Part shown: piece by piece, positions 7,461 to 32,669 of the stretch | Position numbering within the stretch: position 1 is the first letter of the stretch | How the letters are laid out: every line of letters begins with the position of its first letter | DNA from: Mayamaea pseudoterrestris | Taxonomy: Eukaryota | Reading direction: 5' to 3' | Assembly (NCBI GenBank): GCA_027923505.1 | Contig: BROI01000021.1 | Location: 620,001 to 669,208, forward strand | Length of the DNA: 49,208 nt | Translations under genes and position numbers: made by a program | The notes under the pieces: generated by a model | Seen by the model: the letters and a program-made list of their open reading frames with translations, nothing else | Database searches by the model: none | Told to the model about the DNA's origin: nothing

Positions 7461-10400
7461 TTACAGGCCCGATAGGTAACCGGCTGCGGCGACTGCCTTT
7501 GGCTTGGAGCCGAAGGGAGAGTAAGATTTTGGTGCCGTCTTGGACGAAGCATGGGAGCTTGTTGCTTGCGCGGCGGAATATGTGCTCTCATTTCCGATCG
7601 AGCTGCTGTTGGAAGCGGGGGTGCGTTTTGTTGGCGCCGAGACAGAGACACTGGATTTCATCGCTTCAGCAGTTTTTAATGCAGAGAGATACGATGATCC
7701 AGTTAAAGCAGCTTTTGGTTTGCCTCCCATGAATGGCGCATAACTGGCGCGCTTCAAATTAGATCCCGCGCCCAAATTTGACATGAAACTTGATCCAGGG
7801 ATGGTGGACACTAGCTTGGCGGGTGACGCAGTGAATGAAGTATCACTTGATGGCAAAGGAGAGGCATTCTTTAAGGCTGACAGGTATGAAGATCCATTGT
7901 CCACAGCCTTGGGCTTGACACCTTGGAACGGAGCATAGCTTGCCTTCTTGCCAGCACTTGCGCTTCCACCGAGGCTTGCCATGTAGTTGGCAGGGGCTGC
8001 AGAAGATGCGGCGGAGCCTTCAACCGGAGCAGGACTTGAGGCAGAGGATGGAGCAGCTCCAGTCAAATTTGACAAGTATCCAGTCTGCTGGGCGGCCTTG
8101 GGCTTGACACCTTGGAACGGAGCATAGCTTGCCTTCTTGCCAGCACTTGCGCTTCCGCCGAGGCTTGCCATGTAGTTGGCAGGGGCTGCAGAAGATGCGG
8201 CGGAGCCTTCAACTGGAGCATGACTTGAGGCGGAGGAAGATGGAGCAGCTCCAGCCAAATTGGACAAGTATCCAGTCTGCTGGGCGGCCTTAGGCTTGAC
8301 ACCTTGGAACGGAGCATAGCTTGCCTTCTTGCCAGCACTTGCGCTTCCACCGAGGCTTGCCATGTAGTTGGCAGGGGCTGCGGAGCCTTCAACCGGAGCA
8401 GGACTTGAGGCAGAGGATGGAGCAGCTCCAGTCAAATTTGACAAGTATCCAGTCTGCTGGGCGGCCTTGGGCTTGACACCTTGGAACGGAGCATAGCTTG
8501 CCTTCTTGCCAGCACTTGCGCTTCCGCCAAGGCTTGCCATGTAGTTGGCAGGGGCTGCAGAAGATGCGGCGGAGCCTTCAACCGGAGCAGGACTTGAGGC
8601 AGAGGAAGAGGATGGAGCAGCTCCAGTCAAATTTGACAAGTATCCAGTCTGCTGGGCGGCCTTGGGCTTGACACCTTGGAACGGAGCATAGCTTGCCTTC
8701 TTGCCAGCACTTGTGCTTCCACCAAGGCTTGCCATGTAGTTGACAGGGGCTGCAGGAGATGCGGAGCCTTCAACCGGAGAAGGACTTGAGGCAGAGGAGG
8801 AGGAGGAGGATGGAGCAGTTCCAGTCAAATTTGACAAGTATCCAGTCTGCTGGGCGGCCTTGGGCTTGACACCCTGGAACGGAGCATAGCTTGCCTTCTT
8901 GCCAGCACTTGCGCTTCCACCAAGGCTTGCCATGTAGTTGGCAGGGGCTGCAGAAGATGCGGCGGAGCCTTCAACCGGAGCAGGACTTGAGGCAGAGGAA
9001 GAGGATGGAGCAGCTCCAGTCAAATTTGACAAGTATCCAGTCTGCTGGGCGGCCTTGGGCTTGACACCTTGGAACGGAGCATAGCTTGCCTTCTTGCCAG
9101 CACTAATGCTTCCACCAAGGCTTGCCATGTAGTTGGCAGGGGCTGCAGAAGATGCGGCAGAGCCTTCAACTGGAGCAGGACTTGAGGCAGAGGAAGAGGA
9201 TGGAGCAGCTCCAGTCAAATTTGACAAGTATCCAGTCTGCTGGGCGGCCTTGGGCTTGACACCTTGGAACGGAGCATAGCTTGCCTTCTTGCCAGCACTT
9301 GCGCTTCCACCAAGGCTTGCCATGTAGTTGGCAGGGGCTGCAGGAGATGCGGAGCCTTCAACCGGAGAAGGACTTGAGGCAGAGGAAGAGGATGGAGCAG
9401 CTCCAGTCAAATTTGACAAGTATCCAGTCTGCTGGGCGGCCTTGGGCTTGACACCTTGGAACGGAGCATAGCTTGCCTTCTTGCCAGCACTTGCGCTTCC
9501 ACCAAGGCTTGCCATGTAGTTGGCAGGGGCTGCAGGAGATGCGGAGCCTTCAACCGGAGAAGGACTTGAGGCAGAAGAGGAGGAGGAAGAGGATGGAGCA
9601 GCTCCAGTCAAATTTGACAAGTATCCAGTCTGCTGGGCGGCCTTGGGCTTGACACCTTGGAACGGAGCATAGCTTGCCTTCTTGCCAGCACTTGCGCTTC
9701 CGCCGAGGCTTGCCATGTAGTTGGCAGGGGCTGCAGAAGATGCGGCGGAGCCTTCAACTGGAGCATGACTTGAGGCGGAGGAAGATGGAGCAGCTCCAGC
9801 CAAATTGGACAAGTATCCAGTCTGCTGGGCAGCCTTGGGCTTGACACCTTGGAACGGAGCATAGCTTGCCTTCTTGCCGGCACTTGTATTTCCACCGAGA
9901 CTTGCCATGTAGTTGGCAGGGGCAGCTGAGGACGCCGACAAAGTTTCAGTTGACGGAGCTGGACTTGATGCGATGGGTGAAGCAGAACTCAAGCTAGCAA
10001 AATATCCGGACTCTTGTACGACCTTTGGCTTGGGGTTGAACCCAGAATAACTTGGCTTCTTCATGACACTCGAGCCTCCAAGTGACGACATGTAATTAGC
10101 TGGCGCAGATGATGTCGAGGCGGAGGTTTTTTGGACTGGACTGGATTCCTTGGCCGCTGGTTTACTTGTAACTCCGTTTAAATGCGCAAAGTACCCACTA
10201 GTTTCGACTGCTTTAGGCTTTGAGTTAAAGCCTGAATAGCTTGGTTTCTTCATAGCCGAGTTGCCTCCTAGTGATTTGAGGTATTCCGCTGGGGCAGCTG
10301 TCAATGCTGCTGCCGCGTGTGAAGTCGTCGAAGCAGCCGGAGCAACCGGAGTGTAGGAAGGCGCTGCTGGTGTAGCCTTGTTCAAGGCGGACAAGTAGGA

Positions 10401-10905
10401 TGGTCCATCCTCAACTACCTTGGGCTTGCCCTTGAAGGGTGCGAAGCGAGCCGGCTTGGTGTATCCTGACGAAGCTCCGAGTGCAGCCCTTCGTTAAAAC
10501 GAACGTGAATTATTATTGTGTAAGATGTTATTTCTGTGTGTGTCATTGATGCAAGTATTGCCATTCGGTCCGCCAAACTTACATATAGTCGGCCGATGAT
10601 GGATTCGATGCCTTGGATTCTGCCGACTCAAAAACTGTTGGCGCCGAAGGTGCGTATGTGATTCCTGGTTGCTGTTGATCTCCAAGCACTGGCTGCGTCT
10701 TTAGTACTCCATTGTCGAGATTGCTCAGGTAGTTCCCGAGTCCAGCATCGACAGCTTGTGGCTTGGACCCTCCTGACGGTGCGTACGATGCTGGGCGAGG
10801 AGCCGACTGAGCGCCGCTGAGAGAGCTGAGGTAGGAGCTGAATCCAGCCGAAGCTCGTCCAGCTTCGAAGGCGAGAAAGATAAGGGCGCCGTGAGAGATC
10901 TTCAT
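7461..10905 (-). CDS. ~1116-aa Ser/Ala/Pro/Gly/Lys-rich repeat protein with signal peptide and probable plastid transit peptide; candidate pyrenoid linker/scaffold. Exons 10905-10583 and 10488-7461
   Basis: N-terminus MKISHGALIFLAFEAGRASAG-FSSYLSSL. A GTAAGT..AAG intron (10582-10489) joins exon 1 in frame to the 977-aa ORF. There are 11 near-identical and 6 degenerate repeat units. Confidence 0.9.
7903..9920 (-). repeat. Coding tandem repeat: 11 copies of a ~180-200-bp unit encoding PANYMASLGGSASAGKKASYAPFQGVKPKAAQQTGYLSNL plus a Ser/Ala/Pro spacer
   Basis: The + strand motif GGAACGGAGCATAGCTTGCCTTCTTGCC recurs 11 times. Unit-length differences are multiples of 3, mostly in Ser runs. Confidence 0.97.
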
Positions 10906-11459
10906 GGTCCTCTTGTATGTTGCTGTAGATAAAAATCCGTCGCGAGGTGATGGAACGAAACGAAAATGTGTGATGCCGATTTCGACGCTTGATGTGCGGT
11001 GTCTTCCGCCCACCGCGCTTTCATTGGCGGCAGGCCAAACGCACGTCACTCTTGTTCACGTTCGTCAATCACCGTCATGCAAGTCATTTCTGGTGCACGT
11101 CAGAGATACTTCTATACCGATCTGGAGTAAGCCATCACGGGCTGTACAGTGCTATGATCGCCAATTCAATAGCCTCCTCACGAGACGAAGGGCCAAAATT
11201 GGGATCGCGGAGGGAGCAAACCCTTGGTCTATATCATGAAAACTCGGAGATGACTCGGATGCGTGGCCATAGATGAGGTACGTACTTCGATGTCACCAAC
11301 AGCCCACAGAGCTGGCCAATGGCCACCTCGAGCGAGGCTGACGCATGCGTCATCGAGGAGCCTCCCACCAGCCTCCCCCCACAGACACACAAATCGAAAA
11401 CGAGCCATCAACCAATTCGTCTCATTAACCAATCCACCCGATTTACCAACAACTACAAC
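10906..11459. promoter_or_regulatory. Shared bidirectional promoter with CRE/CCRE-like bZIP sites
   Basis: ACGTCA at 11043 and 11097, CGTCA at 11063 and 11073, a perfect palindrome TGACGCATGCGTCA at 11339-11352, and several CCAAT boxes. The region lies between two divergent start codons. Confidence 0.55.
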
Positions 11460-12642
11460 ATGAAGATCACCGGTGCTTTCCTCCTCCTCGCCTCTGGCGC
11501 CACTGCCTTCCAGCCTCTTGCAAGCAAGGGTAACAGCCGCGTCTCTCCCGTCTTTTCCTACCTGTCCAGCTTGGGCCAGGTTTCTCCCCTTGGCAGCACT
11601 CCGCAGAACAACGACATTGCCACCCGAGGAAGCGACGTTAGCATCACCAAGAATGATTTCTTTGCTAGACGCGCTGATGAAGACCGCACGGTACGTTCAG
11701 TGACTTTTTGATGGACAAATGTCTTGTTCTTTGATGGATTTGTCGATGCGAGAAACCGCCGAGTTTTTCAACGAACACATGACTCATTTCTTCCCATTGA
11801 TCTTACAGAGACGCTTGGAGGATCGCCTCAACCAACTCGAACGCGAGAACATTCAGGGCCCCAAGATTCGTTCTGGAGGCAAACCAGCTCCAGGTCGCTA
11901 CATGGCAAGTGATCTCAACCCCGCCGCCATCATCTCCGACCGATCGGCCAATGTCAAAGTCCAAGGAGGTTCGCTCAAGACATGGTCGTATGCTAGTCCC
12001 ATGGTCGAGCGCATTCACGTTGTTCTCAAGACGGAGGGCCGACCGCTTGACGCTGATGTTGCCTTGTGGCAGGGACCAGACAACACCCCGCACAAGATGC
12101 GCATTTATGTGGAGGACGGCGCCGAGCGCCCATTCAGTGCAGTCATCGAGACACCAAGAGGGCCCAATACTGTTTCTATCCGAAACACTGGCCAGCTCGA
12201 ATTTCCCCTGAACGCTCATGTCTTGGCTGAAGTCGACGGATCCAACAGCGACTTACCAGCTGCTAAGTCCAACGACCTCAAGACGGAAGCCATGACTATT
12301 CAGGGAGGAGCTCTTCGAACATACCCATTCGATCCAACTGTCGACAGCGTCGCTGTCCTCTTAAAAACTGACGGACGTCCACTTAATGCACGCATTGAGT
12401 TGCTCCAGGGTCCTAATAACAACAAGCAAGTCGTCGAGATCTACACCGAAGATGGGCTTGACCGCCCCTTCTTCATGATCATTGAGACACCAGGAAGCGG
12501 AAATGTTGTTCGCGTCGTTAACTCTGCAACTGTCGAGTTCCCCTTGACGGCTTGGGTTGAAGCACACAAGATTGGAACCTCATCGTCTCCACTGGAGCCA
12601 GTCATTGGCGGCGATGATGATGGCTTCATCCGCCAGTGGTAA
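11460..12642 (+). CDS. PyShell: PyShell (pyrenoid shell) family protein, plastid-targeted, ~354 aa. Exons 11460-11690 and 11809-12642
   Basis: Bipartite presequence MKITGAFLLLASGATA-FQPL. Phase-0 GTACGT..TTACAG intron. Two tandem homologous beta-rich domains: VQGGSLKTW..LKTEGRPLDADVALWQGPDN..IETP..EFPL and IQGGALRTYPF..LKTDGRPLNARIELLQGPNN..IETP..EFPL. This matches the duplicated-domain PyShell/Shell family as I recall it. Confidence 0.82.
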
Positions 12643-29986: not shown

Positions 29987-32440
29987 TTATAAATCCAGAT
30001 CGCCAGCACTCATGTAGTCGGCTTGCGTCGTTATAAATAGACGCCGGGGACCCACTGCATCACCCATTAGAATCCCCAATGTCTGATCGGCAAGAGCAGC
30101 ATCGTCGGCGGTCACTCTTAGCAGTTTTCTCGTCATGGGGTCCATGGTAGTGTCCCAGAGCTGTCCTGGCATCATCTCGCCAAGCCCTTTGAACCGCTGT
30201 ATCGATACTTTCCCAGACGATATAGCATTGTCCACTTCTTGCGGGCCGCTCAAGGCAAGCAGCATAACAATGACTTCGTCTCGTTCTTTGTCGTCAAAAG
30301 CGTACACTTCCTTTCTTGTCCGTCCACTTCCAGTTGACACTTTGTATAGAGGCGGCTGCGCGATGAAAACGTGCCCTCGTTCAATAAGCTCTTTCTGATA
30401 ACGGTAAAAGAAAGTCAAGAGTAACACCCGAATATGGGCACCATCAACGTCTGCGTCAGTCATGATGATAACCTTGCCGTAGCGAATCGATTTGGAATCG
30501 AAGTCGGCACCCTTGACACCCAAGCCCAACGCTGAAATTAAACCTTGCAGCTCATTGTTTTGATAGATGCGCTCAGCTGCTGCCCGCTCAATATTTAAAA
30601 TCTTGCCACGAAGGGGAAGAATTGCCTGCGTCCTTCGGTCGCGTCCTTGCTTGGCAGATCCGGCTGCTGAGTCTCCTTCAACGATAAATATTTCCGATTC
30701 ATCAATGTCACGCGAGGCACAGTCTGAGAGTTTACCAGGAAGGATGGCCGATGTCAATAGCGTCTTTCTCCGAACCATATCTCGCGCAGCTTTTGCCGCC
30801 GCAGCAGCTTTTGCTGCACTCGTTGCCTTTTCATATATTGCGTCTAGCAGTTCGGGACGGAAGTCAAAAAGGGTGGTGAGTTCCATCGTAACGACCGAGT
30901 CGACGGCGGGACGAACTTCTGGATTACCAAGGCGTCCCTTAGTTTGTCCCTCGAATTCTGGATCGGCCACAGAGACAGATATAATAGCTGTAAGGCCTTC
31001 TCTGATAAATTCGCCGGGTATGTTCCCAGACGCTTCTTTGGACTTGCTGAGCCGTTTAGCAGTTTGATTTATAGTTCTCGTCAAACAAGCTTTAAGTCCT
31101 TCCACGTGGGAGCCACCATCGCGGGTTCGTATATTGTTGCAAAAAGAGAGTATAGATTCGGTGTACATGTCTGACGACCATCGAAGGGCGACCGAAACGC
31201 CAACAGAAGGTCTACCGTCACTAGCAGGGCTCGTGCCAGTGATGAAAATGGTGGATTCGTCAATCGATAAAATGCCAGTTAATGGATCAGACGGAAGGTC
31301 TACTACAGTCCCCGCTGTTTTGGATCTTTTCACTTTCGTTATCTTCGAGGATTTTGTAAATAAGGGGGTCTTGGACTGACATAAAAGCTCCACGTATTCA
31401 ATCAGTCCGCCGGCGTGATAGAAGACCTTCAGCCTATTCTTCACCTTAGGCATGATTCGTTCATCCTTTAGCGTAAGAACTAAACCGGGATTGAGATAGG
31501 CGATCTCGTCCATTCGACTTCGCAAACGACTTGATTCAAAAGTGATACAAGGCATTCCATCCACCCCTTTAAAAACGAGCATATCAGGCAAGAATGTGAC
31601 AATCGTCCCAGACTCACGCGCCGATAAGAGACCATTTAACAATTCAAGGTTTTCTTTTCGTTGTAAAAGATCAATTCGATCATCATCGTCAATCGAAATG
31701 CTATCGAGTCGCTCAAGTTCTTCCGCTACATCTGGATCCATAATTCCTGCCGGCTGTTTCGCGTCAACTTGCAGACTCTCCACGGGAACTCCTCGTCGGA
31801 AGCGCATGCTATATCGGGTCCCAAGTCGATCTACAGCGACGCTAACGCGGTCACTGAGCGCATTAACGACACTAATACCAACGCCGTGAAGACCCCCCGA
31901 CGTTTTGTATCCACTGTCCGATTCTTGATTATTGAACTTTCCGCCCGCGTGCAAAACAGTCAGTACAGTCTCTAATGAACTTTTTTGCGTCACTGGATGA
32001 ATACTCGTTGGAATCCCTCTTCCATCATCCATGACCGTCACGGATCCATCCTGGTGAATGGTAGTGCATACAATCTTGGCGTGGCCGGCCAAGGCTTCGT
32101 CGACCGAATTGTCTACGACTTCCCAGACCAAATGATGCAAGCCATCCGGTCCAGTCGAGCCAATATACATGCCGGGTCTTTTGCGGACAGGGTCTAGACC
32201 TTCTAAAACAGTAATTTGGTCGGCATCGTATGCTCCATTTATTTGGTCTTGCTGACTGAGAGTGTTAATGCTGCTTGAGATGGTGCTTGCTGCCATGCAC
32301 CTTCGAGATTGTCGAGTGAACGATGGTCCATCGCCGAACAAACTGTGTTTCGAAACAGTTTGATAATGCAACTGAAATCCAATGGCACAGCTATGGAACA
32401 AAAACACTATTTGCCACAAATGCTTGCTTGGAACACTCAT
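29987..32440 (-). CDS. gyrB: DNA gyrase subunit B, organelle-targeted (probably plastid)
   Basis: [65 protein letters not shown] and QRFKGLGEM. Presequence ..[10 protein letters not shown]. Confidence 0.97.
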
Positions 32441-32669
32441 GGTAGCGTCAAATATGCGAACTTGCCCCGGCGATGAAAATGAAGGGTTGTCCATGGCGAC
32501 GACGAAAAGAAACATCATAACCAAGCGGCAATGAATGTGATAAATGACTGTCATTTATACAGTACGCATATCTTTTGTGAGGCTCCTACCGGTACTCATC
32601 CCGAGGCCAATCATTTATTTCGCGATTCATAATGTATGTATTCGTGTCGATAGGCACTACGTAGGCACC

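Follow-up and report, generated by a model that had tools for sequence, protein, structure and literature searches.

A 17-unit sticker-and-spacer protein encoded head-to-head with a PyShell gene, a possible scaffold of the diatom pyrenoid

Pyrenoids are where diatoms carry out about a fifth of global CO2 fixation (Thalassiosira survey), and PYCO1, the only Rubisco linker known from diatoms, is restricted to Phaeodactylum. How the pyrenoid matrix coheres in other diatoms, and how shell, matrix, and traversing thylakoid are joined there, is stated as an open question in the literature. In a stretch of 49,208 nucleotides (nt) from contig BROI01000021.1 (positions 620,001 to 669,208, forward strand; hereafter the window), a minus-strand gene at 7461 to 10905 encodes a protein of 1,116 amino acids (aa), referred to here as the repeat protein, and a PyShell gene is transcribed away from it, with 554 bp between the two start codons. 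Is the repeat protein a component of the pyrenoid, and if so, of which part?

It has the build of a sticker-and-spacer scaffold, with 17 evenly spaced blocks, maintained by selection, in a basic and probably flexible chain that carries a putative plastid address. The adjacent PyShell gene, a motif common to the repeat protein and PyShell N-terminal tails, and a family of 57 sequence clusters strengthen the interpretation as a putative pyrenoid linker. We tentatively suggest, at somewhat short of even confidence, that the repeat protein is a multivalent scaffold or linker of the Rubisco matrix that uses a shared docking motif.

The repeat-protein gene and its product

Two minus-strand open frames, of 108 and 930 aa, occupy 7461 to 10905 and are parted by stops when read as one. 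When AG acceptors up to 200 nt from a GTAAGT donor were tried, a single one restored an open frame, giving a 94-nt intron (10489 to 10582, minus strand, GTAAGT...AG) and the 1,116-aa product. Exon 1 (10583 to 10905, minus strand, start codon at 10905) supplies 107 codons plus 2 nt and carries the signal peptide, the G|F junction, and unit 1, and exon 2 (7461 to 10488, minus strand, stop codon included) carries units 2 to 17 and ends in G-Y-L-S-G-L. Contigs from three of four runs, all from one study (X2, X3, and X4), skip the intron, joining 10582/10583 to 10487/10488, the predicted borders; the fourth run (X1) retains it as unspliced DNA and may be what the window was derived from. Because the kind of library is not on record, we infer rather than observe that the joined contigs are assembled transcripts. 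The X2 to X4 contigs have zero coverage between 10986 and 11369, and their depths are unequal between the two genes; neither feature was used as evidence. Two differences from the window were seen in the contigs, namely, A>G at 10798 (X1, X3, and X4), a synonymous change at the third base of the exon 1 Pro-36 codon, and T>A at 10974 (X1 only), upstream of the repeat-protein start codon.

A search with a unit profile (alignment A1, built from 11 units) recovered 17 units in the gene, 16 of them encoded by exon 2 and the remaining one by exon 1, whereas elsewhere in the six-frame translation of the window no further unit scored below E 0.28. Each unit of about 64 aa consists of a 46-aa core followed by a Ser/Ala/Pro spacer of 13 to 21 aa, and the core presents three motifs in the order Y-[ML]-x-S-L-G-G, K-K-x-S-Y-x-P-F...K-P-K, and G-Y-L-x-x-L; in a representative core (9600 to 9737, minus strand; row 1 of the alignment) these read Y-M-A-S-L-G-G, K-K-A-S-Y-A-P-F..K-P-K, and G-Y-L-S-N-L. 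The spacing from unit to unit is 59 to 82 aa overall and 59 to 67 aa in the central part. Throughout the protein, we counted 33 matches to [YF][MLF]xx[LI], 16 elements of the KKxSYxPF type, and 17 of the form KP[KQR].

At the DNA level, the central units form a near-identical tandem array at 7906 to 9923 (minus strand), for which Tandem Repeats Finder gave a period of 192 to 195 nt, 10.5 copies, 92% matches, and a score of 3348; the unit copy number is that of the assembly, the array lying outside the stretch compared with reads. Ten central cores have a mean nucleotide identity of 96%, and the three motifs are invariant among them: nine codon columns vary synonymously only, and the six amino-acid-changing columns all fall outside the motifs. 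Selection acts on the motifs rather than on the spacers.

The protein is dominated by five residues (S, 20.6%; A, 20.5%; G, 9.8%; P, 9.3%; K, 6.9%), which together make up 67.1% of the chain, and contains neither Cys nor Trp. It is strongly basic, with 82 K+R versus 28 D+E and an isoelectric point (pI) of about 9.8 for the mature part, and 73% of its residues are disorder promoting. No Pfam family matched the exon 2 product at E<=1, no NCBIfam family matched the repeat protein, no Protein Data Bank (PDB) chain matched the unit profile at E<=10, and a protein-atlas search gave no usable match. Past the signal peptide there is no hydrophobic segment (the highest 19-aa Kyte-Doolittle [KD] mean is 0.74).

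The N-terminus reads M-K-I-S-H-G-A-L-I-F-L-A-F-E-A-G-R-A-S-A-G-F-S-S. Judged from sequence, residues 1 to 21 (10843 to 10905, minus strand) resemble a signal peptide that ends in A-S-A-G and is followed by F-S-S-Y-L-S-S-L, where a plastid-type junction runs directly into the first motif. In diatoms, Phe at position +1 of the signal-peptide cleavage site marks proteins for import into the stroma (the ASAFAP motif; Gruber 2007 as cited). Trp, Tyr, or Leu may take the place of Phe, and the presequence continues with a stretch rich in Ser, Thr, and Ala and poor in acidic residues. Here Phe stands at +1 only if cleavage occurs after the Gly; cleavage after A-S-A puts it at +2.

The initial annotation of this locus had proposed a protein of about 1,116 aa composed mostly of S, A, P, G, and K, with no evident folded domain, a signal peptide followed by G-F-S-S, and about 17 three-part units separated by Ser/Ala/Pro spacers at a period of about 60 to 67 aa. 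Once the intron is removed, this description is borne out in each of these respects, including the empty Pfam, NCBIfam, and PDB searches and the central spacing of 59 to 67 aa.

A motif shared with PyShell tails and a wider family

The divergent neighbor is a complete two-exon PyShell gene at 11460 to 12642 (plus strand), arranged head-to-head with the repeat-protein gene and encoding 354 aa. Exon 1 (11460 to 11690, plus strand; 77 codons) encodes a signal peptide ending A-T-A|F and then a disordered N-tail; a 118-nt GT..AG intron follows (11691 to 11808, plus strand), across which the X2 to X4 contigs join 11689/90 to 11808/9, and exon 2 (11809 to 12642, plus strand, stop included) encodes the folded shell domain. 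The product matches PF25192 over profile positions 3 to 208 of 209 (E 6.4e-90; 300.6 bits against a gathering threshold of 27), and the repeat protein itself has no PF25192 match. Among 3,187 homologues of the PyShell product, the closest is 94% identical and the best named ones are from Mayamaea pseudoterrestris, which places the origin of the window in a diatom close to the raphid pennates. The protein collections searched contained no identical entry, and, with the closest relative at 94%, the PyShell of this species seems to be missing from them.

The N-tail of this PyShell carries, at residues 32 to 39 (11553 to 11576, plus strand), the sequence F-S-Y-L-S-S-L-G, which belongs to a motif class shared with the repeat protein. 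A strict Y-[LM]-x-x-L occurs in 8 of the 120 best PyShell homologues (of 3,187), always between residues 33 and 46 and never in the folded domain. When only the 58 full-length-looking homologues are considered, six carry it, versus 0.11 expected from shuffled tails (maximum of 2 in 1,000 shuffles). In an alignment of the tails, an island reading F..SYLS[SN]LGGGE.LAST.PQ is kept amid diverged sequence; its carriers are P0009, P0011, P0013, P0014, P0065, P0041, P0092, and P0084, and it is missing from two PyShell paralogues (P0012 and P0021). That these eight residues are kept while the tail around them drifts points to constraint. In the TpPyShell1 lattice, the N-terminal 68 residues are flexible, unresolved, and without an assigned role, and in situ maps contain extra density on the shell for which no assignment is given (PyShell preprint).

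The region between the contig ends of the two genes (10961 to 11397) is probably a shared bidirectional promoter. It contains four TGACGY sites when both strands are counted, at 11043 (minus), 11097 (minus), 11339 (plus), and 11347 (minus), whereas 0.6 would be expected from the 68 sites in the 49,208 bases of the window (Poisson P of about 0.003, calculated post hoc). Two inverted TGACGC sites make up a 14-bp palindrome at 11339 to 11352, about 50 bp upstream of the first PyShell-contig base. PtbZIP11 binds a CO2-cAMP-responsive element, TGACGT/C, which is described on both strands in the promoters of Phaeodactylum genes of the CO2-concentrating mechanism that are induced at low CO2 (PMC11142338). 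The sites are a hint that the divergent pair may be coregulated.

The unit also defines a family. Word-indexed searches gave eight relatives, four of similar length (P0001 to P0004, including one from Mayamaea) and four that are shorter (P0125 to P0128), none of them identical to the repeat protein. A full HMMER search with the unit profile extended this to 57 cluster representatives with E<=1e-3, of which 27 reached E<=1e-10 and 6 reached E<=1e-30, and 259 units were counted in 58 of 61 family proteins. What the family retains universally is the central motif, [KP]-K-x-S-[YF]-[SA]-P-F-G-x-K-P-[KQ]-A, within which conservation over the 259 units is 0.86 for S, 0.98 for Y/F, 0.87 for P, 0.79 for F, 0.75 for K, and 0.81 for the second P; the two Y-L-x-x-L elements are found in about half of the units. 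Many members terminate in G-G-Y-L-x-x-L or S-Y-L-S-S-L, and the C-termini of P0125 and P0126 match the G-Y-L-S-G-L ending of the repeat protein.

The N-termini of the family appear to be of the plastid type, with a signal peptide followed mostly by Phe. All 23 family proteins with a signal-like N-terminus have F, L, Y, or W after a small-x-small site, by a permissive pattern. Read by eye, 13 of these 23 have Phe at the junction and 5 have Leu, while Trp and Tyr occur once each, with 1 ambiguous case and 2 doubtful signal peptides, and in relatives with recognizable signal peptides the junction has F, L, W, or Y in 21 of 21. By N-terminus comparison, the plastid-type presequence proposed in the initial annotation for the repeat protein appears to hold throughout the family.

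Four long members (P0149, P0151, P0168, and P0133; 891 to 1,072 aa) combine a plastid-type presequence with Ala/Glu/Lys-rich, coiled-coil-like repeats, two or three internal hydrophobic 19-mers (KD 1.5 to 1.76), and a C-terminal KKSYSPFG..KPK array ending in GGYLxxL. They look like membrane tethers built on the same motif code. Pfam assigned no family to 28 of 30 longer family members and no convincing domain to any; the matches of P0154 and P0162 were weak, partial, and probably spurious. In a Pfam search of 39 further proteins at E<=0.1, repeat-family members gave sub-threshold matches only, and five PyShell homologues matched PF25192.

Two short gene models of relatives from other sources, P0155 and P0147, are equal to exon 1 and end ...DYM at the site of the repeat-gene intron, so that the intron position seems to be conserved. 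They are probably truncated models of orthologues, and truncation of this kind may be why few full-length relatives appear in predicted-protein collections. Some members (P0003, P0004, P0127, P0163, and P0159) form sub-families with variant units, such as LNYMGSLGGGNAMKSGKNYSGVS or GSYMDTIGGGGVQKYTPP, one of them with a His-rich tail. In these variants, the Y-[LM]-x-x-[LI]-G-G element is retained and the central motif is replaced, which suggests that the elements can evolve separately.

The remaining genes of the window are ordinary nuclear ones, encoding a NatA auxiliary subunit, a UDP-glucose pyrophosphorylase, a leucine-rich repeat protein, a Ras-family GTPase, gyrase B, a Pumilio/CPL protein, a poly(A)-polymerase-like protein, and a PhyH dioxygenase. 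The gyrase B frame (29987 to 32554, minus strand) is intronless in this nuclear context, with 854 codons and four domains (PF00204, PF00986, Toprim, and HATPase_c), and is presumably the organelle-targeted gyrase of diatoms.

Proposed role and competing explanations

A motif common to a linker-like protein, shell proteins, and membrane-type proteins would be explained most simply by a common, space-filling partner, for which Rubisco is the candidate, and this is what would make the repeat protein a scaffold of the Rubisco matrix. We envisage that each of the 17 units presents three stickers, an aromatic one (Y[ML]xSLGG), a basic one (KKxSYxPF..KPK), and GYLxxL, and that the Ser/Ala/Pro spacers would keep units about 64 residues apart. 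With 17 units and three stickers in each, a single chain could hold many partners. If the main partner is taken to be form ID Rubisco, the repeat protein would act by condensing the matrix or making it stiffer, in the manner of PYCO1 in Phaeodactylum and EPYC1 in Chlamydomonas, while the same sticker on the PyShell N-tail and on the long proteins with hydrophobic segments would dock the shell and membranes to it. Such reuse of stickers on membrane-type proteins would mirror the logic of Chlamydomonas, where EPYC1, RBMP1/2, and SAGA1/2 are the analogous components. Import into the plastid, a place in the pyrenoid, the identity of the partner, and condensation are what we infer here; the connection with the pyrenoid is indirect and comes from the pairing with PyShell, the sticker common to PyShell tails, and the reuse of stickers on membrane-type proteins.

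Several results weigh against this matrix-scaffold proposal. No unit was found at E<=0.01 near 78 other PyShell loci in metagenomes (310,604 bases; PyShell 61 to 73% identical), which is weak negative evidence because most of these contigs are about 1 to 3 kb and only about 12 exceed 10 kb, and the Mayamaea homologue and Mayamaea PyShell genes have distant locus tags and so are not adjacent by that measure. On neither count does conservation of the pairing with PyShell find support. Of the relatives, only one has a named source, a Mayamaea pseudoterrestris protein annotated as hypothetical. The motif in the PyShell tails is only eight residues long, and the six carriers among 58 are not independent events because the PyShells that carry it are related to each other; the enrichment of promoter sites, as said, was computed post hoc. 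A charge-hydropathy analysis places the mature protein on the compact side (mean hydropathy H of 0.472 versus a boundary of 0.431), a position that is due to its 20% Ala. AlphaFold2 (AF2) does favor disorder, having given three units a mean predicted local distance difference test (pLDDT) score of 48 and zero secondary structure, but this is a weak result given the single-sequence input. A complex prediction of two PyShell domains with one 46-aa unit scored 0.00/0.00, and, as its controls were not folded, it is evidence neither way. A match to DPC2 (PF25195), which belongs to the pyrenoid matrix of Thalassiosira pseudonana and is not a repeat protein, aligns residues 16 to 39 with profile positions 62 to 84 (E 0.028), but it covers 24 residues and reaches 15.3 bits against a gathering threshold of 70; P0147 and P0155 match the same stretch of the profile, also below threshold (E 0.052 and 0.089). 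Finally, no pyrenoid protein with repeats near 60 aa in length is described in the available part of the Thalassiosira survey.

The last of these results, together with the absence of the adjacency at the 78 other PyShell loci, would also be expected of a stromal low-complexity protein that resides outside the pyrenoid, coating thylakoid or nucleoid through its Lys-Pro-Lys elements or acting in buffering or storage, with a PyShell neighbor by coincidence. Plastid-type N-termini throughout the family and a basic protein with KPK elements would fit that role as well. It would, however, leave the conserved motif island of the PyShell tails unexplained. Further, Lys amounts to only 6.9% and the motifs are centered on aromatic residues, whereas typical DNA-coating tails have a Lys content far above this value; we consider a stromal role of this kind unlikely. 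Import itself would be in question if the signal peptide acted by itself and the product were secreted as a biosilica-associated, mucilage, or adhesive protein of the cell wall. Ser/Lys/Tyr-rich repeats are common in secreted and cell-wall diatom proteins, and the repeat protein offers a signal peptide, low complexity with Ser, Lys, and Tyr, and a possible cleavage after A-S-A that would leave Gly next and Phe at +2. Against this, an aromatic residue or Leu stands right after every recognizable signal peptide of the family (F in 13), the repeat protein has zero RxL sites and zero Cys, and its motif is common to a protein family known to be located in the plastid, all of which make secretion improbable.

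A location in the pyrenoid leaves a choice between matrix and shell. The head-to-head pairing with a PyShell gene, the occurrence of one motif in PyShell N-tails, which would fit homotypic motif-motif contacts, and the extra density on the shell in situ (PyShell preprint) are what one might predict if the units bound the PyShell lattice or tails, so that the protein lined or stapled the shell or formed a shell-matrix bridge like CsoS2. A 17-fold valency with three motif classes per unit seems, however, to go beyond the needs of a lattice staple, and the presence of the same motifs on long proteins with hydrophobic segments is explained more easily by a common matrix target. Hence, we regard a shell-side protein as quite unlikely and retain the Rubisco-matrix scaffold as our tentative proposal.

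A broader and more speculative extension of the matrix-scaffold proposal, which we put forward as possible but doubtful, is that raphid pennates, and perhaps other diatoms, use an undescribed three-element code consisting of Y[LM]xxLGG, KKSYSPFGxKPK, and a C-terminal GGYLxxL. The 17-unit protein would then be the matrix linker where PYCO1 is lacking, the PyShell tails would fasten the shell, and P0149, P0133, P0151, and P0168 would fasten the pyrenoid-penetrating thylakoid, the whole forming an independent red-lineage counterpart of the Chlamydomonas network. The recurrence of one motif set on a linker-like protein, PyShell tails, and membrane-type proteins would make the question of how matrix, shell, and thylakoid are joined experimentally direct. 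If the proposal is true, it would provide a form ID-compatible sticker and a shell-docking tag for synthetic pyrenoids.

Comparison with known linkers

The motif set, the family, and the sharing of a motif with PyShell tails are new; the multivalent pyrenoid scaffold as a kind of protein is already known. The literature on diatom pyrenoids, linkers, and PyShell, searched for the protein and its motifs and including the motif strings, gave no description within a scope that excluded figures and most supplements. The FLIPPer criteria for linkers ask for at least three repeats spaced 20 to 120 residues apart, a pI above 8, and disorder. The repeat protein has 17 units spaced 59 to 82 aa apart and a pI of 9.8 against this limit of 8, and, with repeats about 64 aa apart in a basic chain without detectable fold, the linker architecture ascribed to it in the initial annotation fits criteria of this type as to repeats and charge. 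On disorder the indications are divided: the empty family and structure searches, the AF2 result, and the 73% of disorder-promoting residues speak for it, and the charge-hydropathy value speaks against it.

Among the closest counterparts in kind is PYCO1 of Phaeodactylum tricornutum (Phatr3_J49957), which, like the repeat protein, is a nuclear-encoded diatom protein; it has a plastid presequence, as is predicted for the repeat protein. Both appear to lack a fold over most of their length, both consist of tandem repeats that each bear several aromatic stickers, and both are basic, with similar pI values (about 10 for PYCO1 versus 9.8) (PMC10288592). In PYCO1, six repeats of about 80 aa carry KWSPRGGS and GTGYNP, whereas the repeat protein has 17 of about 64 aa; one PYCO1 sticker ends in G-G-S, as does Y-M-A-S-L-G-G-S in the repeat protein (PMC10288592). 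In the KWSP[RQ]GGS sticker, the Trp is essential, and GTGYNP is the self-association motif (PMC10288592). The Trp of the sticker K-W-S-P-R-G-G-S packs on the G-G-S of the next sticker (PMC10288592, section 10), and the aromatic-plus-G-G-S form of our first motif recalls this arrangement, a resemblance that is a lead rather than a test. We also compared the PYCO1 large-subunit helix AAEWGSMNQ with A-N-Y-M-A-S-L; the hydrophobic spacing is unlike and there were no pattern matches, and the comparison was kept as a lead only. The repeat protein contains no KWSP, Trp, GTGYNP, GYNP, or EW[GA]SMN helix, in keeping with the earlier remark that its sticker differs from the KWSP of PYCO1. It is not a member of the PYCO1 family, being set apart by the motifs and repeat plan described for PYCO1, homologues of which its authors found in Phaeodactylum only (PMC10288592). 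Binding and localization are proven for PYCO1; the repeat protein is known here from its sequence alone.

In Chlamydomonas, one Rubisco-binding motif is carried by the linker EPYC1, the tubule proteins RBMP1/2, and the sheath proteins SAGA1/2 (PMC10473226). This network resembles the present case in combining a multivalent linker with the reuse of a short motif on membrane and boundary proteins (PMC10473226), since PyShell tails and the long proteins with hydrophobic segments also bear motifs of the repeat protein. According to the available part of that work, the Chlamydomonas motif was not found in other lineages (PMC10473226). EPYC1 differs from the repeat protein in that its sequence is unrelated, it serves form IB rather than form ID Rubisco, and it has 5 motifs as opposed to 17 times 3.

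Further parallels come from bacteria and from other green algae. CsoS2, the comparison drawn in the initial annotation, is a large, basic repeat scaffold of alpha-carboxysomes without a stable fold that uses separate motif classes for Rubisco and shell; unlike the repeat protein, it is bacterial, it has zero sequence similarity to it, and its shell is made of unrelated proteins. CsLinker of Chlorella and SUPA1 of Ulva resemble the repeat protein in having at least three repeats at 20- to 120-residue spacing in a basic chain, and they are disordered, as the repeat protein may be, but they belong to the green lineage, and SUPA1 has six helical stickers in about 290 residues. The repeat protein is four times longer than SUPA1, and AF2, run on a single sequence, gave no helix for it. 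PYCO1, EPYC1, CsLinker, and SUPA1 are mutually unrelated linkers defined by their architecture, and the repeat protein appears, by analogy, to be built alike.

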